NCBI GenBank assembly: GCA_903881545.1
Contig: CAIRTQ010000094.1
Span: 1,479-65,478, forward strand
Reading direction: 5' to 3'
Origin: an uncultured Elusimicrobia bacterium
GTDB lineage: Bacteria; Elusimicrobiota; Elusimicrobia; UBA1565; UBA9628
Length of the DNA: 64,000 nucleotides
Below are positions 28,632 through 49,462 of this stretch, in pieces. The position numbers were made by a program, and so were the translations under genes. The notes beneath the pieces were generated by a model. The model worked only from the letters and a program-made list of their open reading frames with translations, ran no database searches and had not been told where the DNA came from. The stretch's first letter is position 1; the number at the start of each line of letters is the position of its first letter.

Positions 28632-29624
28632 ATGGGTCATATCGCTACAGAGGGCGACGTGCAGGCCGCCGAGCGGCTGGGGCAGGCCAAGGCGGATATG
28701 CTGCGCGGCATCCGTTCGGTCATCATCGGTCAGGAGCAGGTGATCGAGGAGATCCTGATCGCGCTCTTCGCGCGCGGGCATTGCCTGCTCGAAGGCGTGC
28801 CCGGTCTGGCCAAGACCTTGATGATATCGAGCCTGGCGCGGCTCCTGGATCTGAAGTTCTCACGCATCCAGTTCACGCCGGACCTGATGCCTTCGGACTT
28901 GACGGGAACCGAGATCCTGCACGAAGACCCTCAGACCCGGCAGCGCACCTTCCGCTTCCTGCCGGGGCCGATCTTCGCCAACATGATCCTCGCCGATGAG
29001 ATCAACCGCACCCCGCCCAAGACCCAGTCCGCGGTGCTCGAGGCGATGCAGGAGAACCAGGTGACGTCGGCCGGCGCGACCCGGCCCTTGCCGCGGCCCT
29101 TCTTCGTGATGGCGACGCGCAATCCCATCGAGCAGGAGGGCACCTACCCTCTGCCCGAGGCCCAGCTCGACCGTTTCTTCCTGCAGATCGCGGTGGACTA
29201 CCCGTCGGCCGACGAGGAGCGCCGCATCGTGACGGAAACGACGGGGGACAAGGAGGTGCGGCTGACGCCGGTGCTGGGCGCCGCCGAGGTCGTGGCTCTG
29301 CAGGACCTGGTGCGCCGGGTCCCGGCGCCGGATTCGGCCGTGGACTATGCGGTGCGTCTGGCGCGGCGGACCCGGCCGGAGGCGGCGGGCGCCCCCGACG
29401 AGGTGAAGAAGTGGGTGGCTTGGGGCGCGGGGCCGCGGGCCAGCCAGGCTTTGGTGGTGGGGGCCAAGGCACGGGCCTTGCTGAACGGGCGCTTCGCTGC
29501 TTGTCTTGACGACGTGAAGGCCGTGGCCAAGCCGGTCCTGCGGCATCGCTTGGTGCTCAATTTTCAGGCCGAAGCGGAAGGGGTCAAGGCGGACTCCCTG
29601 GTCGAGCGGCTCCTGAGGGACTGA
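28632..29624 (+). CDS. moxR: MoxR-family AAA+ ATPase
   Basis: 330 aa with Walker A (GVPGLAKT), Walker B (ILADEINR) and a MoxR-like sequence throughout. Confidence 0.85.
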
Positions 29625-34792: not shown

Positions 34793-37700
34793 CTACTCCT
34801 TCTCAAACCCATGATTTTCGAACTTGAGGGTACGGCAATTCTCGGTGACGGTACGGACTACATGGTCTGGAACACCGAATGGGATATTCGCCTCGACCTC
34901 CAGGGTGACCTTGACCTCGGAGCCCACGATCCCGGCGAGGTGCGCGATAACCTCGTCGGCAATGCGGCCGGCGTCGCGGCCGACCCGCGTTGTTTCAAGC
35001 GTTACGCTCCCATGGAAACGCTTCGGTGGCGCCGCCACTACAGCAACCTTGGCGCTGGGAGTGCTGCTTCCCGACACCGCGATTGATGGGCCGCCGGACC
35101 CATTGGAAGGTTTCGCCGCCTCGTCCGGCGCTTGAGGGGCTTCGACTGCCAGTTGACGTTGGGCAGCATCTGGACGTACTATCAGGCCCAATGGACTGTC
35201 CTCGGCAATCCAGATGTGTTGACCGAAACGGAGACCACGATAACGGCCTGCGGTTTCGTCAAAACTCTCGGCATAAGCGAAAGAGTCTTGCATCCAGGTC
35301 AACAGAGCAAGGCCGCTCAAGATCGCATCGATGAGAACGGCTGAATCCTTTAGCCGCGGTAGATAGAGATACCGAGCGAAGTCCTCAGCTAATTGCTGGA
35401 TCGCCACATGATCCCCGCCGGCCTGTGCCGTATCCCGCGATGCGGCTGGCGCGCGCCACAGAGGGACCTGATCCAATTCCAATCGCAACCGGCTGGCCGC
35501 TAGCCCCGTAATCAAGAGTTCATCTTTACACAGCTTCTTGCTTGCACGAACCGCCAACGCATCCTGGCCTGTAAGACGGAAGGACTGCCATTCGACTGGT
35601 CCTTGTGGGGTTGCCTGTGTAGGCACAATCAACCACTGGTAGGTTTCTGGCAATCGGGCCGCAACCGCGCTGCTGGCGTTTTCCTTCTGTGCTACAGCCT
35701 GCTTGCTCTGGTGTGGGTCAAGATTGAGCGTTTCCGCTTCGTCGACGATGGAGGACCACGCCAGAAATCGGCGGATGGCCTCGTCCAGGTCTTGAAGCCG
35801 GTTTTTATCGGGCGCGAGAAAAACCAGGGCGTTACGGTAGATGCGCGGAGCGGTCCCGCGATTCTGCACCATCTCTTTCGCGGCCGCGATGGCCGGGCTC
35901 TCCGTGTCCTTAGTGTGCGGATACTCAATGCCGAATACGACCAGCCGAGCGTCCTTATCATCAGGCACGTCACCCGATGTCTTCGGCAATGGATGGATGC
36001 GGCTGAAGTCTCCGGCCTTGCGCAAATCATTGCGGAGCCACTTGCCGACTTCTTCCGCCACGGCATCCGGGTCCGACTTGAGTTGCTCGGCTCGGTCATC
36101 GGCCAGTTTCGTCACCGTCGGCTGTGTCGAATACCAATAGCGAGCAGAATCCTGGTAAAGAAAGGTTGCGGCACCGGCGAGCCGGCGCAAAGCATCGCCG
36201 AAGATGGCCGGCGACTCACCCGGCATCACGCAGCCCAACTTAATCCACCTGTCCTCCAGGCCCTTGTGGGCCGCCTTGGCTGTTGGGGCCGAACCAAGAT
36301 AGACTGTTCGCGCCACACGGCGGCAGGCGGAGTACTTGCCGAGGTTCGGCGTTTCCGCGTCAATGCGCAGCGGAACCGAGTTGGGGCCATCCACATCCTT
36401 TTCGATCACCGGCACCCAGTTGTCGGAGAGATAGCGGGTCAATTCGAACTGCACGCGAGGGTCGTCAATCGGGATATTTGAAGGCAGGATCAACGGACTG
36501 CGGTCGCCTTTCTCCCAGAGGCTGTGGATCACGGTGGCCATCAGACGCAGGACGCCCCGGGTGCGCTGGAACTTCACCAGCGTGGACCAGTCGTTGTACA
36601 GCCGATCAAAGACCTCTGGATGAATAGGATAGGCGGCCTTCAGCCGCCTCTCGTAGTCGCTATCGTGGCACTCCGGTGGAAACTCCGCCTGCTGGGTGCG
36701 ATAGAGGTCGAAGAACGCCTTTGCCACGGTGTCGCGGGCGACAAACTGGTCCTGCTCGATCAAGGGCTCGAACAGCCGCCGGCGCACGATCTCGAACCCC
36801 TCTTCGGCGCTGGCCGGCCGCCAAGATGCTTCCACGCGGCCAATCGAATTGCGCAGGCGGTCAAGCGCGGCCCGGCCGCGCTCACCGCCCACCTCTATGT
36901 CATCGGCCTGCGCGTGTGGCGACCCGGTCGTATCGGACGCCGGCAGACTAACCACCAGCAAGCACTGCTTCGCAAGCTTGGCGGATTCCGTGAGCGCCTG
37001 GGCGAAGGTGAAGTGCGTCTCGAAGTTGCCGCCTGGCAGGTCGCCCTGATCGTGGAGTTGGCGGGCGTAGGCTACCCATTCGTCAATGAGGATCAGGCAC
37101 GGACCGTAGTCGTTGAACAGGGCACGCAGTGCATCCCCGGGATTCGTGGCTCTCTCATCGTCCGCCTGAATGCGCTTAAAAGCCTTCTTAGCTTCTTTCT
37201 CACCGCCAGCCGAGTAGCCGAGCTGCCAAGCGATTTCCCCCCACAAGGTGCGGATCACGGTTCCGCCTGGCTTGGTCACCGGGTTGCCGGGGGAAATCTT
37301 GTTGCCCACCAAAACAACTCGATTGACCTTCGGCAGCTTGGTCACTTCGGCGTGCTGGAGGACCGAGTCCACACCAAGAAGCTCTCCGGGCGCGATGCCG
37401 GAGAAGAGGTGATAGAGGGCCAGCATGGAATGGGTTTTGCCCCCCCCGAAGTTCGTCTGGAGCTGAACGACCGGATCGCCACCCATGCCGCTAAGCCTCT
37501 GGGCGGCACTGGCCAGCAAGCCCCGCAAACTTTCCGTGAGGTAGGTGCGGCGGAAGAATTCCTTCGGTTTGCGGTACTCGTCCGAACCTTCGCCTAAATG
37601 AACCTGCCATAGGTCGGCGGCGAACTCCGCCTGCTGATACTTCCCGCTGGCCACGTCCTTGTGGGGACTCGCAACCTCCTTCCAAGGTTTAAGCCCGGCT

Positions 37701-38194
37701 TGCGCCTGTGTCTCGATGGTTGTGCTGGCGCTCTTGCGCTTTTCCGTGCGCACTTGCTCGTCGAAGCGTACGCGGAGCAATTCCATCTTCATCTTTTCGA
37801 CTTCGTCCGCCTCCGGTGCGGATACGGAAGCCAGAAGCCGGGCGGCGCTGTCCAGGGCGCGGTAGGCGTCGTCGGTGCTGAAGGGCCGCTGATGCGCCCA
37901 GCGATTGCGGGTTTCCCGCAACTCGCTGACTAGCGTGCGTTCGGCCTGCCCCAAGGTTTTGCGGAAAACATCGTTCCACTGGTTCCACATCGTAACGAGG
38001 ATGGCGGATGCATCCCACTGCGGCGCCTCCGGGGTTCCTAGGAGTTGAAGCTGGGAATCGGCGAGGGTGCGCTTTGTGTCAGCGAACCAGTTCGGCGGAT
38101 TGGTGTTTTTTAGCTCGCGCTCGACGAAGGGTTTTAGGCCTGACGACAGCAACTCCAACATCTTGCCGACGCGTTCGTGATTGGTAATGGCCAT
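34793..38194 (-). CDS. DUF499-family P-loop ATPase (BrxC/PglY/HmaC-like) with an N-terminal Swt1-like HEPN domain
   Basis: 1133 aa. The N-terminal ~130 aa carry a HEPN R-x4-H motif (RNRWAHQ). Walker A (NFGGGKTHS) and Walker B (CLILIDEWVAY). Size and architecture fit DUF499 defence ATPases. Confidence 0.8.
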   Translation of the reverse strand: MAITNHERVGKMLELLSSGLKPFVERELKNTNPPNWFADTKRTLADSQLQLLGTPEAPQWDASAILVTMWNQWNDVFRKTLGQAERTLVSELRETRNRWAHQRPFSTDDAYRALDSAARLLASVSAPEADEVEKMKMELLRVRFDEQVRTEKRKSASTTIETQAQAGLKPWKEVASPHKDVASGKYQQAEFAADLWQVHLGEGSDEYRKPKEFFRRTYLTESLRGLLASAAQRLSGMGGDPVVQLQTNFGGGKTHSMLALYHLFSGIAPGELLGVDSVLQHAEVTKLPKVNRVVLVGNKISPGNPVTKPGGTVIRTLWGEIAWQLGYSAGGEKEAKKAFKRIQADDERATNPGDALRALFNDYGPCLILIDEWVAYARQLHDQGDLPGGNFETHFTFAQALTESAKLAKQCLLVVSLPASDTTGSPHAQADDIEVGGERGRAALDRLRNSIGRVEASWRPASAEEGFEIVRRRLFEPLIEQDQFVARDTVAKAFFDLYRTQQAEFPPECHDSDYERRLKAAYPIHPEVFDRLYNDWSTLVKFQRTRGVLRLMATVIHSLWEKGDRSPLILPSNIPIDDPRVQFELTRYLSDNWVPVIEKDVDGPNSVPLRIDAETPNLGKYSACRRVARTVYLGSAPTAKAAHKGLEDRWIKLGCVMPGESPAIFGDALRRLAGAATFLYQDSARYWYSTQPTVTKLADDRAEQLKSDPDAVAEEVGKWLRNDLRKAGDFSRIHPLPKTSGDVPDDKDARLVVFGIEYPHTKDTESPAIAAAKEMVQNRGTAPRIYRNALVFLAPDKNRLQDLDEAIRRFLAWSSIVDEAETLNLDPHQSKQAVAQKENASSAVAARLPETYQWLIVPTQATPQGPVEWQSFRLTGQDALAVRASKKLCKDELLITGLAASRLRLELDQVPLWRAPAASRDTAQAGGDHVAIQQLAEDFARYLYLPRLKDSAVLIDAILSGLALLTWMQDSFAYAESFDETAGRYRGLRFGQHIWIAEDSPLGLIVRPDAAQRQLAVEAPQAPDEAAKPSNGSGGPSIAVSGSSTPSAKVAVVAAPPKRFHGSVTLETTRVGRDAGRIADEVIAHLAGIVGSEVKVTLEVEANIPFGVPDHVVRTVTENCRTLKFENHGFEKE

Positions 38195-38197
38195 GGA

Positions 38198-40027
38198 TTA
38201 CTCCGTTTGGGACAGCTTTGGCGTGTCCAACACCACAATGTCCTTAAAGTGTTCCGCCAGCCGATCTAACTTCTCGGCCACTTCAGGAGGCAAGTCGCTG
38301 GATGCGACGTCCTCGATCATTTGGCAATATTCGCCCTTTCGCAGAAGGACTGGCTGCTTTTGCCGCCGCGCGAACTCCTCGAACACGCCTTCGGCGAATT
38401 CGCTCATCTTGAGGTTACTGAGTAATGTCTTCTGCAAGCTGGCACTGGCCGTCTTATACTCGTCAAGCTGCTGGCGATCTCCAGCAAACACCTTCTTCAG
38501 AAGATGCTCATCCAGCACCTCCTGCATCGTTTTGACGTTCGACTCGGTGAACAAACCGCCTTCCTGATCGAAGACGCCGACAACAAATTTCAGAATGAGA
38601 TCAGGAGTAATATAGTAATTCTCAATCTCATAGCGTTGCCAATAAAGGATATCCAGGCCCTCCCCGCTTTCATCAGACAAGTCCCGCGCATCCTTGTCCA
38701 GAATGGCCAATCCCTTAAACTCCGGCACCAGTCCCTTCATGGCATGAAAATGGCGCTTAATGTTTTCCTGGAATGCCCCGCCCAGCCGATCTAGTTGATT
38801 GTCGAGCGTGTCGGCGGGCCCGACATTACGCGTGTAGTAGTAGTTGATGCGCCCCGCGAGCACCCCTGACGCAGGATGTTTAAGCTTCGCCGCGAGCGCC
38901 TTGAGCGTGTCAAAATCCGTGGATCCTTCGATATAGAGGATTCGGGGACACACTCGCGCTTTGTAGTAATGCTCGACCCCGAATGTCCGCAACGAGTTTC
39001 GCACGTTCTGCATCGTTGCAAGGTCGGCGGCCGTCCCATTAATAAGCAACGTCAGGTTGGTCTCGATCGCGTCGTCCAGAATGACTTCCGAATGTGTGGC
39101 CACCACAACTTGACTATTGTTCTCCGCCGCCACGTCCTTAAGCATCTCATAAACTTGTTTCTGCCGTAAAACTTCGAGATGAGCATCCGGTTCGTCAATC
39201 AGAAGCACGCTGCCCTTATTTGTGTAGAGATAGGAAAGGATCAACAGCATTTGCTGGAACCCACGCCCTGCCAGCGCGATGTCCATGTCGGCGTCAGTAT
39301 CTGGCTGGCTATAGCGCACGACCAATTCGCCGCGCTTCTCGTCTAGGCGTGGTCTGCCGAGCGCAACACCGAACAGTTTCTGGATCAGACGACCGATGCG
39401 GTCCCAATCTTCTGTTCTCTTTTCCTTGTCGTTCTCAACGACCTTGAAGCAGAGGTTGCGGAGCACCTGCGCCGTCTGGCCTTGCCCCAGCAGGACGTTA
39501 ACGCGGCCCTCGGGCACGAGGGTTTCGACCGGCTCAATTCCTGACATCGGGTAGAGCAAATGAAATGGGATGCTGCTCGCATGCGCAATTAGAGCATCGT
39601 CCTTCAGCGTCTCCTCACACGGCCGGCAGTAAAGGACCTCGCTGTCACGCACGGTAAACTCCATGCGACAGTCCTTGACCAGTCCGCCGTGCTCGACGCC
39701 CACATTGACCGTCAAGCGAATGGAGGCATTGTCCTTCCGCACCCGCATTCGGTTCCACAAAAAGCGATTCTCGGAGACCGGCACCTCAAGGATGCTCAGC
39801 CGGTTGATGCCTGCTGCGACCCGCTCTCTCTTTTCCTTCTGCCGAGGCCGGCCCTTGCGCTCGTACCATGCCTGCACGCCGCGGCTCCATAGGGCGAGGG
39901 CCTGGATCACGCTGGTTTTCCCGGCATTGTTTGGTCCGATCAGTACGGCAGGATGTCCCAGGTCCACATGAATTTTCCCACCAAATATCTTAAAGTTCTC
40001 GATTTCGACATAACGAATGCCTCGCAT
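38198..40027 (-). CDS. ABC-type (AAA_15/AAA_21, OLD-family-like) ATPase fused to a C-terminal DUF4435/TOPRIM-like domain (single-polypeptide PARIS AriA-AriB-like)
   Basis: 609 aa with Walker A (GPNNAGKTS), Walker B (VLLIDEPDAHLE) and H-loop (VVVATHS). The C-terminal ~200 aa carry YIEGSTDFD and DKDARD motifs resembling DUF4435 (YVEG ... DRD). Confidence 0.7.
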   Translation of the reverse strand: MRGIRYVEIENFKIFGGKIHVDLGHPAVLIGPNNAGKTSVIQALALWSRGVQAWYERKGRPRQKEKRERVAAGINRLSILEVPVSENRFLWNRMRVRKDNASIRLTVNVGVEHGGLVKDCRMEFTVRDSEVLYCRPCEETLKDDALIAHASSIPFHLLYPMSGIEPVETLVPEGRVNVLLGQGQTAQVLRNLCFKVVENDKEKRTEDWDRIGRLIQKLFGVALGRPRLDEKRGELVVRYSQPDTDADMDIALAGRGFQQMLLILSYLYTNKGSVLLIDEPDAHLEVLRQKQVYEMLKDVAAENNSQVVVATHSEVILDDAIETNLTLLINGTAADLATMQNVRNSLRTFGVEHYYKARVCPRILYIEGSTDFDTLKALAAKLKHPASGVLAGRINYYYTRNVGPADTLDNQLDRLGGAFQENIKRHFHAMKGLVPEFKGLAILDKDARDLSDESGEGLDILYWQRYEIENYYITPDLILKFVVGVFDQEGGLFTESNVKTMQEVLDEHLLKKVFAGDRQQLDEYKTASASLQKTLLSNLKMSEFAEGVFEEFARRQKQPVLLRKGEYCQMIEDVASSDLPPEVAEKLDRLAEHFKDIVVLDTPKLSQTE

Positions 40028-40039
40028 AGCTTTACCCCT

Positions 40040-41506
40040 TTAGAACAGCTCTGCCTGCGGTGTCTGAGATTCCCCGTCCTTGCGTGATAGGCGGGCCAAT
40101 TCCGGCCAGCCCATCACCAGCGCATTATAGCTTTGAGCGCCCTTACTCCACTGCTTCTTCTCGCAGACGGTGAACAGTTTATAGGCCAGGTCGCGGGCCA
40201 CATCCGCTTTACCGCCCAACTTGCGCAAGAGCGCCGCTGTGGCCGCGTCGCCTCGCTTCTCGGATACATACACGCGCAGCAGGTGATGGGTCATCTCCCA
40301 TACTGTCAGGCGCTTGTCCGTAGTGGGATCCCAGTCAGCCGGCAACTCCTCCGGACGAAGAAGACGGACCTGGTTGCCCTTGACCTCCACGATGCCAGCG
40401 GCGACGAGGCCATTCATGGCAGTGGCCTGCGCATTGGCCAGCAGGTTGGCCTGTCCGGCCTCGCCCCATTCAAATCCCGTGCCGGCGAACCAGGTCACCG
40501 CCCACCGCGTGTCCTTGTCGAGTTCCTCAACGGCCTCACCAAGCAATTCATCCTTCATGCCGTTGATGAGGGCCAGCGCGGTGCGAACGGCCATCGGCTT
40601 GCCATTGCTCTCCAACACGGCGGAGTAGCGGGAAAAGACCGCCATGCCGGGACCGATGGCCGCTTGCGCAAAGTCCACCGGGGCCACGTTGCCCTGTTGT
40701 AGATGGTGTAGCGCTGGCGGTAGCTCGCGTTTTAACTCTGCCACGAACGCATTCCGGCCGACTCGTAGCGCATCCGCCGGGCGCGGCCTACAGGCGAGCA
40801 CGATGTAGGAGGCTAGAGCGTTGGAACCCATCGCGCGCATTCGCCATGCTTGCGATGCGCGTACCGGCCACGTCCCAGTAATCTGGAAGTTGCTTGAGAT
40901 CAGTGCGTCAAGGAGCGTCTCCCAGCCTGTTGTGAGATCAATTCCCGCGGCCTCCGTCGATGCTTCATCCGCACCGCTTCCCTCGTCGTCTTGCTTGAAA
41001 GCGTAGTAAACGGTAAGCGGGAAGTGCGGATCCATCTCGTCCCGCAGGGCCGTGAAAGCCTTCCGGAATCCCGTCTCAAAATGTTGCTTAGCCCTTTCCT
41101 TGTCGCCCTCGAACCGGTCGGGAGAGGCGATCAGTTCCGTCATCTTGGGGACGAGCACGGTACGGAAAATGTCCGGATAATGTTCTCCGATTGTGCGTCT
41201 CAGCCAGACATAGGAGAAGTCCGACAGCGCGCCGTAGCTAATATTGTCGTAGTAGGGCGGATCGGTGCTGACCAGCAAGTTGCGGAGGCCGTTTGCGCCG
41301 GGGCAGCGTCGGCTTGGTGGACTGTCGCTACGGCTTCCGGATTCGGCGTTATCGTCTGAATGGCATCTGCGCATATGTCGACCGCGGTGTGCCAGCACAC
41401 GGCTTTTTCGCCCATTATGTTTGGCTCGACGAAGTCCCAGACCAACCGAATGACCTGTAGTCCGAAGAGATCCATTGACTGCTGACCACTCGCTTTCCAC
41501 CGGCAC
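40040..41506 (-). CDS. DUF1156-family N6-adenine DNA methyltransferase, C-terminal part (real portion begins near nt 41300, containing DPPYYDN motif IV)
   Basis: LLVSTDPPYYDNISY... and the downstream C-terminal domain. Upstream of about 41300 this frame is R/S-rich nonsense. Confidence 0.75.
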   Translation of the reverse strand: MPVESEWSAVNGSLRTTGHSVGLGLRRAKHNGRKSRVLAHRGRHMRRCHSDDNAESGSRSDSPPSRRCPGANGLRNLLVSTDPPYYDNISYGALSDFSYVWLRRTIGEHYPDIFRTVLVPKMTELIASPDRFEGDKERAKQHFETGFRKAFTALRDEMDPHFPLTVYYAFKQDDEGSGADEASTEAAGIDLTTGWETLLDALISSNFQITGTWPVRASQAWRMRAMGSNALASYIVLACRPRPADALRVGRNAFVAELKRELPPALHHLQQGNVAPVDFAQAAIGPGMAVFSRYSAVLESNGKPMAVRTALALINGMKDELLGEAVEELDKDTRWAVTWFAGTGFEWGEAGQANLLANAQATAMNGLVAAGIVEVKGNQVRLLRPEELPADWDPTTDKRLTVWEMTHHLLRVYVSEKRGDAATAALLRKLGGKADVARDLAYKLFTVCEKKQWSKGAQSYNALVMGWPELARLSRKDGESQTPQAELF

Positions 41507-42870
41507 AGAGCATTATTGAAGTCTGCGCAGCGATCAACCGCGAGGGCAAGAAACGTCGCCACCGACTGGGCATAGGCACCGGCCTCTGCATGGGTCCAAC
41601 CCGCCGCAATAGCATCGCGCCGCACGTCCGCGTCGATCTCCTTTACTAGGTCACTCAAAGTCACCATTGCCGTGAGCTGCCGGGGAGTAAAAAGCTGCCA
41701 GTGCTTCCGAATGCCGTAGTTCTGAACCCGGAAGCCTAGTGCTTCATCGGGAAGATCTGTATCTGGGAAGCCCTGCGGTTTGGCTGAATTAGCGGCCTCG
41801 ACCTGCTCCGGGCTTATCGGGATATAAGTACGACCGCGGGGGAGCTCAGCTACAACTGCGAGCATGACGCATCCCAGCCGACCACTTTGCCCTTCACTGC
41901 GAATGTACTCAAATGGGATGGGTGCGTCGGTGAGCAGGCACCGAAACCCCCCCCTGCCTCCCTTCGTTCCCTCATCAATTTGTGTCCGATTTACGGGCGC
42001 TCCCGTCCGCACCACAAACCGGTAAGTACACTTGGCCTTGTCCACCACCGGCTCCATCCAGTGATAAGGCGGCTTCTTGTCCTTCCTTGGGGAATTCAGC
42101 CAATACGTGCTGATGAGCGGCACATGGATGCCTCGTGCCGCAGGGTTCGGGCTAGCAACCGTGCGAGCCCAAATCCATGCGATGACGTTGGCCTCGCCGC
42201 TTCCATTTTCCTTAGGCAGGTGCACCTTAGGGTAAAGACTTCCAATCTTCGCATACGCTCTATGGCGAACCAGCCGCCCGTAGTAGCGTACGTCGGCTGC
42301 GAGTCCGTTCGCGCCGTGCCAAGACTGTGTACCTCCAATCCGCTTACGGTCCTCCGAATTTACGGGCGGTCTATTCACCCAGCGCGGCGCAAGCTCCAGA
42401 TTGCACTTGTTGAGCATCACTGCGATAGGATTTAGGTCGCCTGCGTGGGCTTCAAATCCAAGTCGGTTAGCCTCAAGAGGGATGGATCCACCGCCGGCAA
42501 ACGGGTCAAGCACGGGCGGGAGCTTTCCGTCGCAGTGCTTGAGCATCTCCTCCTGTGCCTCAGCATAGACCTCCGGATGTTCATGGAGTTTCTTGCCCAT
42601 GAGTCGCCGGATGATCCCGAACAGTCGCTCCCGCTCAGCATCCTGCTTGGCCTCGCTCTTGCCCGCCCACGCCGGATTATCCGAAGGATCGGTCACGACC
42701 GAAGCGAACAGCACCGCCCGCGCGGTCGGCAGCGGCAACCGCGCCCACCAGTGGTGGATGCCCTTCGGATGCGGCCCGATTCCCGGCATCTTGTCGTAGG
42801 ACGACGCATCGTTGATCTCTGGCAGCGGGAGCGCCACCTCGATAAGCTTCTTTTTATACGGAACCGTCAT
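41200..42870 (-). CDS. DUF1156-family N6-adenine DNA methyltransferase, N-terminal part (real portion 42870 down to about 41300; frameshifted relative to the C-terminal part)
   Basis: Starts MTVPYKKKLIEVALPLPEIN (DUF1156 signature N-terminus) with SAM-binding DPFAGGGSIP (motif I). The frame degenerates after about 41300. Its ATG overlaps the PIN gene's TGA stop as ATGA. Confidence 0.75.
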   Translation of the reverse strand: MTVPYKKKLIEVALPLPEINDASSYDKMPGIGPHPKGIHHWWARLPLPTARAVLFASVVTDPSDNPAWAGKSEAKQDAERERLFGIIRRLMGKKLHEHPEVYAEAQEEMLKHCDGKLPPVLDPFAGGGSIPLEANRLGFEAHAGDLNPIAVMLNKCNLELAPRWVNRPPVNSEDRKRIGGTQSWHGANGLAADVRYYGRLVRHRAYAKIGSLYPKVHLPKENGSGEANVIAWIWARTVASPNPAARGIHVPLISTYWLNSPRKDKKPPYHWMEPVVDKAKCTYRFVVRTGAPVNRTQIDEGTKGGRGGFRCLLTDAPIPFEYIRSEGQSGRLGCVMLAVVAELPRGRTYIPISPEQVEAANSAKPQGFPDTDLPDEALGFRVQNYGIRKHWQLFTPRQLTAMVTLSDLVKEIDADVRRDAIAAGWTHAEAGAYAQSVATFLALAVDRCADFNNALCRWKASGQQSMDLFGLQVIRLVWDFVEPNIMGEKAVCWHTAVDICADAIQTITPNPEAVATVHQADAAPAQTASATCWSAPIRPTTTILATARCRTSPMSG

Positions 42871-43418
42871 GGGCACGCTCTGAGCAGGCGCGGATGAGAG
42901 GTCAAAACATCGATCCCGCCAGAGGTGAAATCGCCATCGTTGGTGACCAGTTTCCAGCCATGATGACGGCAAGTCTCGGCGAGGAGGCCGTCGTTGAAGT
43001 CATTCACTCCAGTCTCAAAGTCAGCAAGTACTTGCGTGACGTTGGCGGCGGAAAATGGATGGTCGTGCCTAGTGCAGAGTTTAAGCATTTCTCGTGCGTA
43101 CGTGGCGGCGCCTGCCCCCACAGACTTAAAAGCGGGGGATTTGCGGAACATTTTAAAGTCCGGCTGCGCCGCCTTGTGTAATGCAATCCACTCGATCCGG
43201 CAGTAGCGGTTGAGGTACTCGCTGAGGATCAGTGCATCCATAACCAGGCGTGATCCAGCGGTCAGTATGCCCTTCAGGGCGTTCGAATAGCTGGCAGCAC
43301 GCCAATCGGGCTTATTGGACGGGGCCGGATAGAGGTAGAGCCAGACATTGGCATCCAGCAAAAAGGGCTCGTTCTTCTGGAAAGCATACTTGGAGAGGTC
43401 GTGAGCTTTATTCTTCAT
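42867..43418 (-). CDS. PIN-domain nuclease (VapC-like)
   Basis: About 183 aa from MKNKAHDL. Conserved acidic residues in LLDANVWL, DALILSEY and TNDGDF. Confidence 0.7.
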   Translation of the reverse strand: MKNKAHDLSKYAFQKNEPFLLDANVWLYLYPAPSNKPDWRAASYSNALKGILTAGSRLVMDALILSEYLNRYCRIEWIALHKAAQPDFKMFRKSPAFKSVGAGAATYAREMLKLCTRHDHPFSAANVTQVLADFETGVNDFNDGLLAETCRHHGWKLVTNDGDFTSGGIDVLTSHPRLLRACP

Positions 43419-43767
43419 TATTGCCCACCTCTTCCTTCCACGCCGCATCAAATCGTTTCGGGGCTTTGAAATACGCCTTAGCGTTTTCGACCACGCGCTT
43501 GAGGACTATGCGGTCTTCCTCATCCATGTCGCGGACCGAAAGCAGTTCCCTAATTCGGTCTTCAGGGAACTTGCCGTAGAGCTGCCCAATCGCGGCGTTG
43601 AGGAAAGACGAGATCATCGTCTCCACCTGCTCAAAGGAGAGGGAAACTTTCTTCCCCTCGCTCAGCAGGAGAGCGATCTTGTCGTAAACGCGTTGGCCAT
43701 CATCGGCAGATACGCCCAACGGACCACCGACGATATCGAATACACGAACCACAATTGGCTCACTCAT
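43408..43767 (-). CDS. DUF4325-like (STAS-like) small protein
   Basis: 119 aa (MSEPIVVRVFDIVGG...GKKVSLSFEQVETMISSFLNAAIGQLYGKF) resembling the STAS-like DUF4325 family. Overlaps the PIN gene by 11 nt. Assignment is from memory of the family and is unverified. Confidence 0.45.
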   Translation of the reverse strand: MSEPIVVRVFDIVGGPLGVSADDGQRVYDKIALLLSEGKKVSLSFEQVETMISSFLNAAIGQLYGKFPEDRIRELLSVRDMDEEDRIVLKRVVENAKAYFKAPKRFDAAWKEEVGNNEE

Positions 43768-43785
43768 CTTTCCACTCCATTCTGT

Positions 43786-44655
43786 TTAGAAAATGCTCTC
43801 TGGCGGTATCTCCGACGCCAGAACATAGGATTCTGTGTCGGCAGTGTTGATCTCGATGGTCACGGCCGTACCAGGGAAATCTGCAGCCATCTTCGCGAAG
43901 GACTCCTGGCCATCGCCGAACTCGTAAAATCCGAATCGGGAGGCGATCTGAATTCGGCCCTTGTTCAGCCGGACGAATTCCTGAAGAAACTTCAGGCCCA
44001 ATCCCCCCGGTTGAGGCCCTCTCTTCGTGGTATGGCCCTCCTGCAATGCCCAGCGAATCGCATCAACAGAAGACATTTTGCCGCCGAGAAATCGGCGGAC
44101 GCTTTCCCTAATGCCAATGCCCGCATCCACAATCGTCAGATCGAGTCTTTGCTTCTGCGGGAAGAACTGTCCGCAAACGAAGATCCCGAGTTCTGACTCG
44201 GAATGAATCACGGCATTCTGGAAGACCTCAAAAATCTTCTTCTTAAACACTTTGCCGAGCCCTTCGGACATGCGAGGAATGCCCTTGCCTCTCAGGTGCC
44301 GTTCCACGTAATCGGCAAAGAGCCCTTCGTCCGAACGCTGGAGGCGGCGAAACGGAATGGTGGTTCGGTTCACGTCGTCCAACGCCGGGTAACGGTATTG
44401 CGTCAAGAAACCGTTTTTCCGCAAGATGTGTTCCACCATTTCCGGAACGCTGACCACTTCAATGGCATTGAAGCGATCTGCTACTCGCGCCAGCACCGCC
44501 CCGAGAGGGGCAGCCATGTTGGCGGCGAAAAAACCGACTTGGGACAGATCGAGTTCCAAACGACTGGCCGAAAGCATAGCAGTTTCTCTGGCCAACTCCG
44601 CCAGCCGTTCGTATCCATCCCGGCCGCTTTGGACTGTTGGCAAGCGGGAGATCAT
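43786..44655 (-). CDS. GHKL-superfamily ATPase (histidine-kinase/RsbW-like ATP-binding domain) with an unknown N-terminal domain
   Basis: 289 aa with N-box (EVFQNAVIHS), G1 (IVDAGIGI) and G2 (GGLGLKF). Its ATG overlaps the helicase TGA as ATGA. Confidence 0.7.
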   Translation of the reverse strand: MISRLPTVQSGRDGYERLAELARETAMLSASRLELDLSQVGFFAANMAAPLGAVLARVADRFNAIEVVSVPEMVEHILRKNGFLTQYRYPALDDVNRTTIPFRRLQRSDEGLFADYVERHLRGKGIPRMSEGLGKVFKKKIFEVFQNAVIHSESELGIFVCGQFFPQKQRLDLTIVDAGIGIRESVRRFLGGKMSSVDAIRWALQEGHTTKRGPQPGGLGLKFLQEFVRLNKGRIQIASRFGFYEFGDGQESFAKMAADFPGTAVTIEINTADTESYVLASEIPPESIF

Positions 44656-47600
44656 GATGGCGCTCCAGCCCGCTCTAGCAAATCTGCAAAATTGTAATTT
44701 ACGCTGGTCACGCCGAAGTCTGGCTCCCGCCGGAAAGGGTGGCGGACATAATGAACCCGCTGTTTCTCGCCGTCGAATTCAACGATGGCGAGAATGAAGT
44801 CATCGGGTTTGTTGAGCGAGTACAGGATTTCATTCTTGGTGACGGTGATCGTGGCGGCGCCCGTGACGCGTCCCTTCACCTCAATAAAGCGCAGCCGCCC
44901 GGTGCCAGGCACGCGGCTCTCGATGTCGTAGCCCAGCTTCTCGGTCTCGCGGTCGGCGGGGATGAAGCCCAGGCCGCGCTCGACCATCATCACGGCCTCG
45001 CGTGCTCGCGCTGCCGCGGCCAAGGTGTCGGCTGCGACGCGTGGGAGTTCGGCGGAATGACCTGTCATGGCGGCAAGCAGGCCCGCAGGTATCACCACAA
45101 GGCCGCCCAACACGACCGGGGGCAAAGGGGCGATCTGCCGTTCGAGTTTGAGTTCCTCCATCCGCTTCTGCAACCGTCCCTGAAGGGCATCCGCGCGTTT
45201 CCGCGCTTCATCCGAGTTAAGTCGCGCATTAGGCCTGCCCGCCTGTTCCTGGAGCTTAAGCTCTTCGGCGCGGTGGTCCCAATAGCTGATCTCCTTCGTC
45301 AATCGGTCCTGCACCGCCGCCTCGGTCTTAGCAATGAGATCGAGCTTGCGCGCGCGAACCTCATTAAGGTGTTCGGGCACGACATTCGCGACGGCGTACC
45401 CCTGCGCTTTTTGCTCCAGTTCTCGGGTTATCCAAGCGCATTCCGGTCGGGCCAATATCGCGTCCACCGCCGGTTCGCCGTCCGCCAACGGGCGATAATC
45501 CAGGTAGGGCGCATAATGCGGATTGCGCGCGTTGCCGTCCGCCTCCAGTTCCACATAAAGCATCCGCTTGGATATGACGCGACGCTCCCCCGCCGCCATG
45601 GCGGCGGCAGGCAGGCCCGTCCGTGCCAGGCTTGCGTCCTGAATGGCATGCTCCAGATAAAAGAGTACGCGAGGGCGTGTCCCGCAGTCGCGCTCGTCGA
45701 CCAGCACCGTGCCGCGGCGCAGCAAATCGCGATGGCGTTCAAGGGTGAGGTCTATGGTGACGTCCAGTAACGGGTGCCCCGGGCACAGGAATGCGGCCAG
45801 TGGCTGGCCCTGCGGAGCGACCAGGGATTTCTCAAAGGCAACCCGCTCGTAGCGCGACAACAACGGCTCGGCGATTCCAATGAGCCGGTCGCGATTGCGC
45901 AGAGGAGATGGGACATGCGCGATCTCATAGCGGCGCGGTTCGCGCTGCTTAACCGAACCCCCCAAACGCTGGAAGGCATCGAGGAAGAAAGATTCAACGT
46001 AATGGGGTTGCAAACGACGCGCCTCGGCTCGCTCCATCTCCTCGCGAATGCGGTACACGCGAGTGGCGTCCATCGCGTCGTGCGCGAGAGCATGTTCTTC
46101 GAGCAAATCGCGCAACTTGGCAGGGTCCACGGAATTGGCGACCACTTGCGTAAGCTTGGCGCGAACATCGGGGCGTTCCCCGTAACGAATCGCCTCGATC
46201 AAGAGCTCACGCAGAGGTTTTCCCCCAAATTGGAGCTTCCCTAGCACATCAAAGACTTGGCCTCCCAGGGTTTCCCGGGCCTGTTCCAGCTTTTCCAGCA
46301 GAGTTCGGTATACGTCTCCCTCGCGGGTTTCTTCGGCGACGAGATTCCAAAGATGACAGACTTCGGTCTGTCCAATGCGATGAATACGGCCGAACCGTTG
46401 CTCGATACGGTTCGGATTCCATGGCAGATCATAATTCACCATCAGGTGCGCCCGCTGGAGGTTAATCCCTTCGCCAGCGGCATCCGTCGCCAAAAGGACC
46501 TGAACTGCGGGATCGTGTTTGAATGCTTCCTGCGCCTTCATCCGCTCCTCACGGCCCATGCCGCCATGAATCATCACTACTGCTTCCTTTCGCCCAAGAA
46601 GGGTCGTAATTCGATTCTCTAAGTAGTTGAGGGTGTCGCGGTGCTCGGTGAAGAGGACAAGTTTCTGGCGCGGGGACGAAGTCGGCGGCGGGATTGTCGC
46701 AGACCCGTGAGTGAGTGGGCGCTCAGCCACCTGGGTGGCATGGATGGCGGACGTGAAGATTTCGTTTAACAGTTGGGAGAGCTCACGCCACTTCTTATCC
46801 TCACCGCTCCGGCGGAGCGTGAGCGCCAGCGCTTCAAGGCGCTTTAGCGTCGTGATTTCCGCTTTCAGTTCCGAGATTGTTCGCGCCGCGGTCGACTGGT
46901 CGAGAATCTCCTCTTCCGCCGTCTCGACCTCATTATCAGGGGCGTCTTCGAGATCTTCAACATCCTCATCATCCAGCACCGGGATCCCGGCCGCCATGGC
47001 AGGCGCGGTTACGCTCCCCCGCTGGAGTAATTTCAACTCTTCCAGTTTGCTTTCCAACCGTTCGCGACGACGACGCAACGACTGATAGATGGCTTCAGGC
47101 GACGAGGCCAAACGGCGCTGCAAAATAGTGAGCGCAAAACCGACGGTGCCGGCGCGCTTATCGTTCTGAAGCGCATCAGCCCGGTTGAACTCCTCGCGAA
47201 CGTAGTCGGTCACTTCCTTGTAGAGTTGCGCCTCCGCATCGGAGAGCTTGTATGGAACAGTGTAGGCTATCCGTTCCGGAAACAGCGGAGTCGCATCGAA
47301 CTTGAGCAGCCCTTCCTTGACCATGCGCCGCATCAGATCAGAGGCGTCAGAGGCGTGAACGCCATCACGGAAGCGTCCCTCGAATCTATCCCCATCGAGG
47401 AGCGCCATGAAAAGCTGAAAATCCTCTTCCTTGCCATTGTGCGGCGTCGCGGTCATCAGCAAGAAATTCCGGGTCATAGTGGAGAGAAGCTGACCGAGCT
47501 TGTAGCGCTTCGTATACTTGACCTCGCCATTGAATATGCTGGCGGACATCTTATGCGCCTCGTCGCATACGATGAGATCCCATCGGCAGTCGGGAGCTCT

Positions 47601-48257
47601 CAGCTTGTCTTGAACATCCTCATTGCGCGAGAGCTTGTCGAGCCGGGCGATGACCAGGTTTGTCTCAAGGAACCAGTTGCCAGTGCGAGCGGATTCCAGC
47701 TTGTCATTGGTCAATATCTCAAAAGGCAGGTGAAATCGACGATAGAGCTCATCTTGCCATTGCTCGGCCAGACTGCCTGGACAGACCACCATACAACGAT
47801 GCAGGTCTCCTCGGGCAATTAACTCCTTCATGAGGAGCCCTGCCATGATTGTCTTGCCCGCGCCAGGGTCGTCGGCCAACAAAAAGCGCAGGGGTTGACG
47901 CGGCAGCATCGTGTCGTAGACCGCCGTGATCTGGTGCGGGAGTGGCTCAACTACTGAGGTGTGGACGGCAAGGACCGGGTCAAACAAATGGGCCAATCGG
48001 ATCCGATGAGCTTCGGAGACTAGGCGAAACAGCGCGCCATCCCCATCAAAACTCCATGGCCGTCCTTGAAGGGCCACCTCGACACGCGCTTCGTCCTGAC
48101 GATATAAAAGCTCGTTAGACACTTTACCGGCTGGGTCTTTGTAGGTTAACTCAAGGGCGTCCGAGCCGAACCACTGAACATTGACGACAGAGACAAGGCA
48201 TTCCGGTAAAATGCCTCTTACTGAAGCGTTCGGTTTTAGTTCCTCTAGCTTGCTCAT
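44652..48257 (-). CDS. SNF2/DEAD-like superfamily-2 helicase with C-terminal DUF3883 (HmaA-like)
   Basis: 1201 aa from MSKLEELKPN. Motif I (LADDPGAGKT), motif II (DEAH), helicase C-terminal motifs (LLATDAAGEGINLQ, QRFGRIHRIGQ). C-terminal domain (IEVKGRVTG...TKNEILYSLNKPDDFILAIVEF) typical of DUF3883. Confidence 0.85.
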   Translation of the reverse strand: MSKLEELKPNASVRGILPECLVSVVNVQWFGSDALELTYKDPAGKVSNELLYRQDEARVEVALQGRPWSFDGDGALFRLVSEAHRIRLAHLFDPVLAVHTSVVEPLPHQITAVYDTMLPRQPLRFLLADDPGAGKTIMAGLLMKELIARGDLHRCMVVCPGSLAEQWQDELYRRFHLPFEILTNDKLESARTGNWFLETNLVIARLDKLSRNEDVQDKLRAPDCRWDLIVCDEAHKMSASIFNGEVKYTKRYKLGQLLSTMTRNFLLMTATPHNGKEEDFQLFMALLDGDRFEGRFRDGVHASDASDLMRRMVKEGLLKFDATPLFPERIAYTVPYKLSDAEAQLYKEVTDYVREEFNRADALQNDKRAGTVGFALTILQRRLASSPEAIYQSLRRRRERLESKLEELKLLQRGSVTAPAMAAGIPVLDDEDVEDLEDAPDNEVETAEEEILDQSTAARTISELKAEITTLKRLEALALTLRRSGEDKKWRELSQLLNEIFTSAIHATQVAERPLTHGSATIPPPTSSPRQKLVLFTEHRDTLNYLENRITTLLGRKEAVVMIHGGMGREERMKAQEAFKHDPAVQVLLATDAAGEGINLQRAHLMVNYDLPWNPNRIEQRFGRIHRIGQTEVCHLWNLVAEETREGDVYRTLLEKLEQARETLGGQVFDVLGKLQFGGKPLRELLIEAIRYGERPDVRAKLTQVVANSVDPAKLRDLLEEHALAHDAMDATRVYRIREEMERAEARRLQPHYVESFFLDAFQRLGGSVKQREPRRYEIAHVPSPLRNRDRLIGIAEPLLSRYERVAFEKSLVAPQGQPLAAFLCPGHPLLDVTIDLTLERHRDLLRRGTVLVDERDCGTRPRVLFYLEHAIQDASLARTGLPAAAMAAGERRVISKRMLYVELEADGNARNPHYAPYLDYRPLADGEPAVDAILARPECAWITRELEQKAQGYAVANVVPEHLNEVRARKLDLIAKTEAAVQDRLTKEISYWDHRAEELKLQEQAGRPNARLNSDEARKRADALQGRLQKRMEELKLERQIAPLPPVVLGGLVVIPAGLLAAMTGHSAELPRVAADTLAAAARAREAVMMVERGLGFIPADRETEKLGYDIESRVPGTGRLRFIEVKGRVTGAATITVTKNEILYSLNKPDDFILAIVEFDGEKQRVHYVRHPFRREPDFGVTSVNYNFADLLERAGAPS

Positions 48258-48553
48258 TTGAGAAGACGCATCCCAGCATCCCATCGCCCGGTAGAAAATG
48301 ATTCTATAAAACCAGCACTAGGCCGGGCTAAGCGCAAGGGCACCATTCAGTCGAGTAGGAGATTTTAGCATGATTGGGCCATCGGGATGCGGCAGACTGA
48401 CAATAGTGCTGGCCGAACTCGACGGCGATAGGACGTAAACTGGTCTCCTCGGCGGCACCTGCGCTTCGCTTAGTGCCGCCGGTTGCGCCCGGCATACGGC
48501 CGCCGGGCGCTCGCTACGGCAAAGCCCGAACTTTATTGTCCCTTATCCGGCGG

Positions 48554-49462
48554 ATGGCATTTGGTAAAATCCTTGCCACCGTGCGTTACCTCGACCCGGT
48601 CGCCCTGGCCAAGCTGCGCAGATTCGACCTCACCATGCGGCGCGTCCTGGCCGAAGGCCACCTCGTCGGCCGCCACCGCAGCGCCGCCAAAGGCCTCTCC
48701 CACGAGTTCGCCCAGCACCGCGCCTACGTCCCCGGCGACGAGATCAAGTCCCTCGACTGGAAGGTCTTCGCCCGGCAGGAGCGCTTCTATGTCCGGCAGT
48801 ACCAGACCGAGAACATACTGGCCAGCGCGGTCCTCCTGGACGCCTCCGGCTCCATGGGGTTCTCCGCGGCCGGCCGCCCGAGCAAATGGGAGCTCGCCTG
48901 CCGCCTCGCCATGGCCGTCTCCTATCTCGTCCTCGCCGGCGGCGACGCGGTCGGCTTGACGACCTTCGATACCGAGCCGCGCGACTACTCCCCCTCCCGC
49001 GCCAGCTTCGGCCAGCTCGCGGTCCTCGACTCGCTGCTGGACCGCTCCCGGCCCCGGGGAGAGACCGATCTCGCTAGCGCCCTGGAGGCCGCGGCCGCGC
49101 GCATCCGCAGGCGCTCCTTGCTCATCCTCATATCCGATCTCCTCGGTGACGCCGGCGCCATCATCAAGGCCATCAAGAGCCTGCGCGCCCGGCGCCATGA
49201 GGTCATGGTCCTGCAGGTCCTCGACCCGGCCGAGAAGAATTTCAGCTTCGACGGCCCCACGTTGTTCCGCGGACTGGAGGACGGCCGCGAGATCTACTGC
49301 GACGCCGCGGCTCTGCAGGACGCCTACCGCGAGGCCTTCGGCCGCCAGCAGAGGCTCTACGAAGCAGGCTGCCATGCCGCGTCCATCCCCTTCTGGTCCT
49401 TCCTTAATGACCGGAGTTGGGAAGACGAGCTGGCCCGATTCCTGGGGCGCGGGCTGTCATGA
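48554..49462 (+). CDS. DUF58 protein (MoxR-associated, VWA-like)
   Basis: About 302 aa from MAFGKILATVRYLDP. DUF58 core (DWKVFARQERFYVRQYQTENILASAVLLDASGSMGF). Confidence 0.8.
   Translation: MAFGKILATVRYLDPVALAKLRRFDLTMRRVLAEGHLVGRHRSAAKGLSHEFAQHRAYVPGDEIKSLDWKVFARQERFYVRQYQTENILASAVLLDASGSMGFSAAGRPSKWELACRLAMAVSYLVLAGGDAVGLTTFDTEPRDYSPSRASFGQLAVLDSLLDRSRPRGETDLASALEAAAARIRRRSLLILISDLLGDAGAIIKAIKSLRARRHEVMVLQVLDPAEKNFSFDGPTLFRGLEDGREIYCDAAALQDAYREAFGRQQRLYEAGCHAASIPFWSFLNDRSWEDELARFLGRGLS

Follow-up and report, generated by a model that had tools for sequence, protein, structure and literature searches.

A single-chain ABC ATPase and predicted Toprim nuclease of the OLD/PARIS family nested in an Hma operon

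The 64,000-nucleotide stretch of DNA analysed here (the window) carries an Hma operon in which one gene, encoding a single-chain ABC ATPase and Toprim nuclease (38198..40027, minus strand), lies between the methyltransferase and the DUF499 ATPase. The locus raises the question of whether such a protein is a PARIS-like layer built into the restriction system, as a preliminary description had proposed, or an autonomous defence module that has settled there. The protein belongs, as a divergent member, to the known OLD/PARIS family of abortive-infection systems. We consider it probable that it is a self-contained OLD-ABC/Toprim defence protein, with a nuclease closest to AriB, that acts as an ATP-gated abortive-infection backup in the Hma operon.

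The gene, its conserved residues and its operon

The ORF list and the translation gave an open reading frame with an ATG start and 609 residues, on a strand that the preliminary description had left unspecified. That it is a genuine gene is shown by more than 3,000 clusters of homologues, with proteins of ~ 600 residues that matched it over the full length, at E-values down to 0. The OLD/AAA_21-type ABC ATPase domain, located by Pfam, the PDB sequence match and Foldseek, covers residues 1 to ~ 350 (38978..40027; this and all further features are on the minus strand). The C-terminal domain, with an AriB-like Toprim fold and a helical subdomain, covers residues 360–600 (38228..38950). An N-terminal ABC ATPase had been correctly recognised before, but its end had been put at ~ 400 residues, and the boundary is nearer to residue 350/360.

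All motifs quoted in the preliminary description are present, and each was placed at exact coordinates. The ATPase domain contains the Walker A motif GPNNAGKTS with K37 (39911..39937), an ABC signature-like LAGRGFQQ (39251..39274), the Walker B/D-loop LLIDEPDAHLE with D278 and E279 (39173..39205), and the H-loop ATHS with H312 (39089..39100). In the C-terminal domain, the Toprim glutamate motif YIEGSTD (E367-G-S-T-D371; 38915..38929) has the spacing of E26/D30 in AriB (PMC11464382). It is followed by the DxD motif DKD (D444-K-D446; 38690..38698) and by the conserved YEIEN (E467, E469 and N470; 38618..38632), which is a likely second metal site. The pattern E-x3-D ... D-x-D ... E mirrors residues E26/D30/D88/E90/E122 of AriB (PMC11464382), an equivalence read from the spacing.

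Conservation was followed in an alignment of 76 sequences, with relatives at 40–59% identity. K37, D278 and E279 were invariant (76/76), as were G254 and G256 of the ABC signature, and H312, E367, D371 and the helical-subdomain lysines K540 and K564 were invariant or nearly so. Among the sequences with a residue at the respective position, D444 was Asp in 74 of 75, D446 was Asp in 71 and Asn in 4, and E467, E469 and N470 were kept in all 75. The conservation of both sets of catalytic residues indicates that the two predicted enzymatic activities are under purifying selection. The C-terminal domain evolves faster than the ATPase, with a mean identity to the window protein of 37% versus 52%.

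In the surrounding Hma (Type-1 BREX-related) operon, PADLOC matched all of HmaA, HmaB and HmaC. HmaA is an Snf2 helicase with a NOV_C nuclease domain (44652..48284; E = 0), HmaB a DUF1156 N6-methyltransferase (40040..42870), and HmaC a HEPN_Swt1 domain fused to the DUF499 ATPase (34793..38194; E = 0). The HmaB and HmaC matches on the flanks bear out the described position between a methyltransferase and a DUF499 ATPase. HmaB was matched on two ORFs (1e-146 and 1.4e-143) split by one frameshift, and tblastn with the intact 953-aa HmaB of locus L011 placed the frame switch near 41290–41299; the Hma system may therefore be inactive here, or the assembly may be wrong. The gene under study does not belong to the defining components of Hma. 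Between HmaA and HmaB lies a variable slot (42867..44655), occupied in the window by genes for a HATPase_c protein (43786–44655), a DUF4325/STAS-like protein (43408–43767) and a PIN protein (42867–43418/43451). The GC content of the island is 0.53–0.61 versus 0.66 in the flanks. Within it, our gene (0.549) is nearer to the other inserted genes than to the core Hma genes (0.59–0.61).

The gaps of 12 and 3 nt reported earlier agree with the sequence. Between the HmaB stop codon TAA and the ATG of our gene lie 12 nt (AGGGGTAAAGCT, Shine-Dalgarno-like), and 3 nt separate the TAA of our gene from the ATG of HmaC; both flanking gaps bear Shine-Dalgarno-like sequences. Promoter and terminator scans across the operon gave no match above chance level. 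With gaps this short and such signals at chance level, the natural inference is that one transcript carries the gene together with HmaB and HmaC and that their translation is coupled.

Affinities of the ATPase and nuclease domains

The ATPase domain was readily assigned. Pfam AAA_21 (2.3e-22, 80.9 bits) and AAA_15 (1.1e-18, 68.4 bits) both passed their cut-offs, and both scores exceed the thresholds of 27 and 32 bits, respectively, at which either model qualifies a PARIS ATPase (PMC9122126). The PADLOC models of OLD-type ATPases that matched the protein include AriA, AriAB, GajA, Old (6.2e-15), AbiLi (4.8e-14 on the ATPase) and PtuA. The top PDB sequence match of the family profile was the OLD protein from Thermus (6p74, 2.6e-7). 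In Foldseek searches with the full-length model, which is a monomer, PtuA, GajA and OLD led the matches; GajA and OLD aligned end-to-end, and PtuA aligned with the ATPase head. AriA was absent from the top 50 matches of this model, and the ATPase is therefore not specifically AriA-like.

The C-terminal domain had been described as a TOPRIM-like DUF4435 nuclease. The Toprim assignment stands, as an AriB-like domain recognised by PADLOC and by fold, but the Pfam label is not supported: DUF4435 (PF14491) scored 15.5 bits (E 0.015) on the domain alone, below the curated cut-off of 27. None of 18 relatives reached this cut-off either (five gave weak matches), and 0/10 more divergent relatives matched. 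The PADLOC models AriAB (3.4e-6) and AriB (1.1e-4) did match the domain, and AriB models matched 12 of the 18 family C-terminal domains. Searching PDB sequences with a profile of the C-terminal alignment gave neither AriB nor OLD, only a spurious HisZ match, so fold searches were needed. In the structural comparison, the highest-ranking match was AriB of PARIS (8v46_D, 183 residues aligned, score 9.7), followed by Thermus OLD (rank 2, 8.0), a class-2 OLD (rank 4, 7.6), the Toprim of retron Ec67 (rank 5, 7.5) and GajA (rank 8, 6.4). Foldseek with the domain likewise placed a chain of the PARIS complex first (8ux9_A, E 5.8e-4), ahead of the C-terminal regions of class-2 OLD proteins. The domain is therefore homologous to AriB at the profile and fold level, and, according to its model, AriB of PARIS is its closest structural match.

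PARIS shares with our protein an ABC ATPase coupled to a Toprim nuclease, an equivalent acidic catalytic pattern, and a tie to restriction-type systems inhibited by Ocr-like proteins, in addition to the matches of the AriA, AriB and AriAB models and the top structural rank of AriB. It is set apart by the sub-threshold DUF4435 score, the lack of a PDB sequence match to AriB, and the ATPase described above. In canonical PARIS, the AriB nuclease is released from the AriA hexamer scaffold (PMC11464382), which the covalent fusion would bar. The statement that PARIS consists of two proteins was incomplete, as single-gene AriA–AriB fusions were reported with the original description of the system (Rousset 2022, PMC9122126). 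GajA of Gabija has a related OLD-type ABC ATPase head and a fused Toprim domain, and PtuA of Septu and retrons a related head of the same type. For Gabija, no UvrD-like helicase GajB was found in the operon by the ORF list, Pfam or PADLOC. For Septu and retron PtuAB, no HNH nuclease PtuB was found as a neighbour, and the C-terminus of our protein is Toprim. We also observed that the helicase of this operon, HmaA, is of the Snf2 type and not UvrD-like.

Distribution and genomic context of the family

Of the 8,000 candidate clusters that were scored, 3,279 matched the family; GTDB species genomes contributed at least 582 loci, and the C-terminal domain alone formed 347 clusters at 50% identity. 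Family members are almost always fusions of ~ 600 residues, with a patchy distribution over many phyla at 40–60% identity. Apparent stand-alone C-terminal domain proteins from a representative search were mostly truncated metagenome gene calls. One candidate split system (P0136, on a 2.4x long-read contig) was rejected; ATPase fragments precede its C-terminal domain, and it is therefore a broken fused gene. Canonical PARIS is often carried on satellites. Our family differs in being rare in viral contigs, where two full-length relatives were found, and a tblastn search of phage genomes gave no match. Plasmid matches were confined to the ATPase domain, at ~ 25% identity. Plasmid proteins of ~ 560 residues were rejected as bona fide AriAB comparators, given that two of them with an ATPase match had no DUF4435 and that the C-terminus of one (L096) was unrelated to our C-terminal domain in hhalign.

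In five loci, namely that of the window and those of relatives with 92, 84, 83 and 79% identity, the gene occupies the slot between HmaB and HmaC. Each of them has the DUF1156 methyltransferase upstream and the HEPN-DUF499 gene downstream, with gaps of 9–13 nt and 3 nt. The HmaA–HmaB slot contains the HATPase_c/DUF4325/PIN trio in the window and L011, and other cargo in L007, L093 and the P0010 contig; these other cargoes are GmrSD, a trio of DUF4325, an 872-aa ATPase-like protein and Schlafen-HATPase_c_4, and an AAA_21 ATPase with a 217-aa protein. By tblastn, the identity to the window was 84% for our gene versus 83% for HmaA and 80% for HmaC in L007, and 92% versus 94% and 96% in L011. In these two loci, the ones compared in this way, the gene has diverged to roughly the same degree as HmaA and HmaC.

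Other relatives reside elsewhere. Two at 78–81% identity (P0021 and P0024) are stand-alone, with no Hma genes, and the sampled relatives at 56–60% are also stand-alone. HmaB or HmaC was found within 10 kb in 0/80 genome loci with 40–59% identity. R-M genes were adjacent in 17 of these 80 loci: in about 12, the gene is nested in a type I operon of the order hsdM-hsdS-X-(optional gene)-hsdR, frequently with just a few nt between genes, and about four adjoin an N6_N4 methyltransferase. One relative at 63% identity adjoins a type III-like restriction enzyme. Neighbourhood clustering revealed no conserved partner gene besides R-M genes, and toxin-antitoxin genes were found near some copies. Most family members are stand-alone, some of them among housekeeping genes, and the link to Hma may hence be incidental.

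On the basis of this survey, with its stand-alone, type I R-M and Hma occurrences, we rejected an Hma-specific gene and regard the family as an autonomous module with a strong and repeated tendency to lodge in restriction-type operons, immediately after the methylase or specificity gene. The association with Hma is one lineage-specific instance, and only the close subclade is Hma-embedded. The earlier proposal of a layer built into Hma was overstated. A similar nesting is known from type I R-M loci, where RloA/RloB of Campylobacter and the lactococcal AbiLi/AbiLii are ATPase/Toprim pairs linked to restriction. They resemble our family as ATPase and Toprim-like modules within R-M operons, and differ as two-gene pairs from the fused protein. 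Profiles of the RloB/AbiLii type gave no match to the C-terminal domain at E up to 10, in a search where HMMER filters drop weak matches.

Possible mechanism and meaning for restriction-linked immunity

In the mechanism that we favour, the ABC ATPase head would serve as sensor and switch, holding the covalently attached Toprim nuclease inactive. We infer that some signal from the phage, for which an anti-restriction protein or DNA mimic is plausible by analogy with PARIS, would alter the nucleotide-dependent conformation or the oligomer. The two-metal Toprim site might then cut host or phage nucleic acid, and the infection would be aborted. The substrate could be tRNA, by analogy with PARIS, or DNA, by analogy with OLD and GajA. 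The fusion cannot release its nuclease from an AriA-type scaffold, so the activation must differ from that of PARIS; it would be conformational or oligomeric, with the nuclease staying attached. As the gene appears to be co-transcribed and translationally coupled with the Hma methyltransferase and HEPN-DUF499 ATPase, its most likely role would be that of a backup layer that fires once the restriction function is blocked.

The protein could also be a Class 1 OLD-type DNA nuclease, namely an ATP-regulated nickase/exonuclease acting on phage or replicating DNA and not a tRNA nuclease triggered by anti-restriction proteins. Its layout is indeed that of Class 1 OLD, with an N-terminal ABC ATPase and a C-terminal Toprim domain in one polypeptide and no adjacent UvrD-like helicase as a partner. 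The top PDB sequence match to Thermus OLD, the score of the Old model in PADLOC, and the alignment of OLD and GajA over the whole model point the same way. OLD nucleases with a catalytic lysine are said to have been described by Schiltz et al. in 2019/2020, and the invariant K540 and K564 recall this residue. Nevertheless, compared to P2 Old and Thermus scotoductus OLD (6p74), the Toprim and helical region is more AriB-like, the identity is only ~ 12–15%, and the family has invariant motifs of its own (YPMSGI, GQGQTAQVLRN and W463-x2-YEIEN). We give this interpretation a low but appreciable probability. A selfish addiction or toxin-like module that merely hitch-hikes in defence islands and R-M operons and lacks a trigger dedicated to phage would explain the patchy, HGT-like spread across many phyla at 40–60% identity, the GC content below those of the core Hma genes and flanks, and the toxin-antitoxin genes near some copies. 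It is highly improbable, given that the sites of the ATPase and of the nuclease are both under strong purifying selection, that no cognate antitoxin gene is conserved beside the gene in the neighbourhood clustering, and that the characterised relatives PARIS, OLD and Gabija are bona fide defence systems.

Two further explanations concern the tie to restriction complexes. The protein might be no independent module but an integral subunit of the Hma system in this lineage, where, as guard or effector, it would act in physical association with HmaB and HmaC and watch for their inhibition. The HmaB-X-HmaC order is fixed in five loci (79–100% identity) with near-identical gaps of 9–13 and 3 nt, while the cargo of the HmaA–HmaB slot varies, and the divergence of the gene is comparable to that of HmaA and HmaC in L007 and L011. 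An AAA_21 ATPase pair also occupies this HmaB–HmaC slot in all Halomonas hma loci (PMC11232893), and type I R-M operons show a parallel nesting, with the gene between hsdS and hsdR. We regard such a subunit as unlikely, because P0021, P0024 and all relatives sampled at 40–60% identity lack Hma genes, canonical Hma is defined without this gene, and HmaA by itself defends against T4 (PMC11232893). Less likely still, in our opinion, is that the whole clade is a dedicated guard of methyltransferase-containing restriction complexes, sensing their inhibition through an intramolecular switch. If so, a physical interaction would explain why the gene recurrently nests directly after hsdS or the DUF1156 methyltransferase and ahead of the motor or ATPase gene. 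Inhibition of the R-M complex would be sensed, in contrast to AriA, which binds the phage inhibitor, and the switch would have to be intramolecular as the nuclease cannot be released.

The favoured reading, an autonomous OLD-ABC/Toprim backup, is in line with the literature, and the finding is sound and was largely anticipated. In a NAR 2026 study (PMC12839542), Hma is equated with Type-1 BR among the DUF499-centred BREX-related systems, a pervasive association of OLD-ABC ATPases with nucleases, Toprim among them, is described for at least 1,242 taxa, and PARIS-like OLD-ABC/Toprim modules in BREX/DUF499 systems are presented as an anti-anti-restriction layer. These modules share with ours the host system, the module type and the rationale; ours differs as a single fused gene from a mostly stand-alone clade. 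In hma loci, Liu et al. (2024) noted various inserts, PARIS and Septu among them; in Halomonas, an AAA_21 ATPase and an unannotated gene lay between hmaB and hmaC in every hma locus (PMC11232893), an insert position that matches that of our gene. The anti-anti-restriction idea for such modules is therefore already published, and no new concept is opened here.

The present analysis adds a distinct and almost always fused clade below the Pfam DUF4435 threshold, mostly stand-alone and with a nuclease domain predicted to be AriB-like by fold, which type I R-M and Hma operons have both taken up in corresponding positions. The PARIS/OLD superfamily thereby gains a large uncharacterised clade. At its curated cut-off, DUF4435, the model on which the first rule for detecting PARIS depended, misses this clade. 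Candidates from cultured strains, namely Acidovorax soli, Sphingomonas pituitosa, Limnobacter litoralis and Aquabacterium lacunae, make the family tractable. The locus in the window is a natural example of layered immunity, whose single operon combines an RM-like Hma system, with HmaC bearing a HEPN domain, a PIN module and the ATPase-Toprim module. That the same clade is repeatedly nested in type I R-M and Hma, which are unrelated as restriction systems, provides comparative support for the idea of an anti-anti-restriction backup.

Genomic setting of the Hma island

The genes for MoxR, DUF58 and BatA/VWA proteins are normally neighbours in Bat/MoxR operons. In the window, ~19 kb separates the MoxR AAA_3 ATPase gene (28632-29624, plus strand, at 28.6 kb) from the DUF58 and BatA/VWA genes (48473-52230, plus strand, at 48.5-52.2 kb); this interval contains the low-GC Hma island, along with a gene for a permease and genes for polyamine synthesis. 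This distance, with the island in the gap, suggests that a Bat/MoxR operon was split by insertion.

We also observed that the plus-strand gene at 54471-59594 encodes a 1,707-aa protein with a radical SAM domain (aa ~221-384) and a very long series of TPR repeats.

Frameshift in HmaB

The HmaB DUF1156 methyltransferase (40040-42870, minus strand) is encoded by two overlapping ORFs, split by one frameshift. When the intact orthologue from L011, a related Hma locus carrying the same fused gene, is aligned to it, residues 1-538 of the orthologue match one reading frame and residues 536-953 a different one. The junction, at ~41290-41299, contains no long homopolymer. The frameshift could be an assembly error or could mark a real pseudogene; were it real, the self-protection of the Hma system would be lost.

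ATPases and nucleases in and around the Hma operon

The C-terminal domain of the fused gene also occurs elsewhere. P0229, a 722-aa protein found by searching with this domain, has an AAA_14-DUF4143 ATPase at its N-terminus and the AriB-like domain at aa ~404-634; therefore, on at least one occasion the nuclease domain has been joined to an ATPase of an unrelated type. L093, another related Hma locus, carries the fused gene in the HmaB-HmaC slot, and its HmaA-HmaB slot (L093 3113-5085, plus strand) adds a further ATPase, of 440 aa (AAA_21/AAA_15), and an unannotated 217-aa protein. Its operon would thus hold two OLD-type ATPase modules together.

HmaC (34793-38194, minus strand) has a Swt1-like HEPN RNase domain at its N-terminus (4e-37), which brings the nuclease types encoded in the window operon to as many as four: NOV_C/PD-(D/E)XK (on HmaA), PIN, Toprim and HEPN.

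The PIN nuclease belongs to a three-gene insert between HmaA and HmaB (42867-44655, minus strand), together with an HATPase_c protein, which shows a weak STAS match at its N-terminus, and a DUF4325 (STAS-like) protein. The stop codon of the PIN gene and the start codon of HmaB overlap (ATGA). L011 has the same trio, where other related Hma loci carry GmrSD, a Schlafen-HATPase_c_4 protein or an AAA_21 pair. The HATPase_c and DUF4325 proteins look like a partner-switching kinase/antagonist pair with the PIN RNase under its control, and an RNase controlled in this way would be a further effector embedded in the operon.
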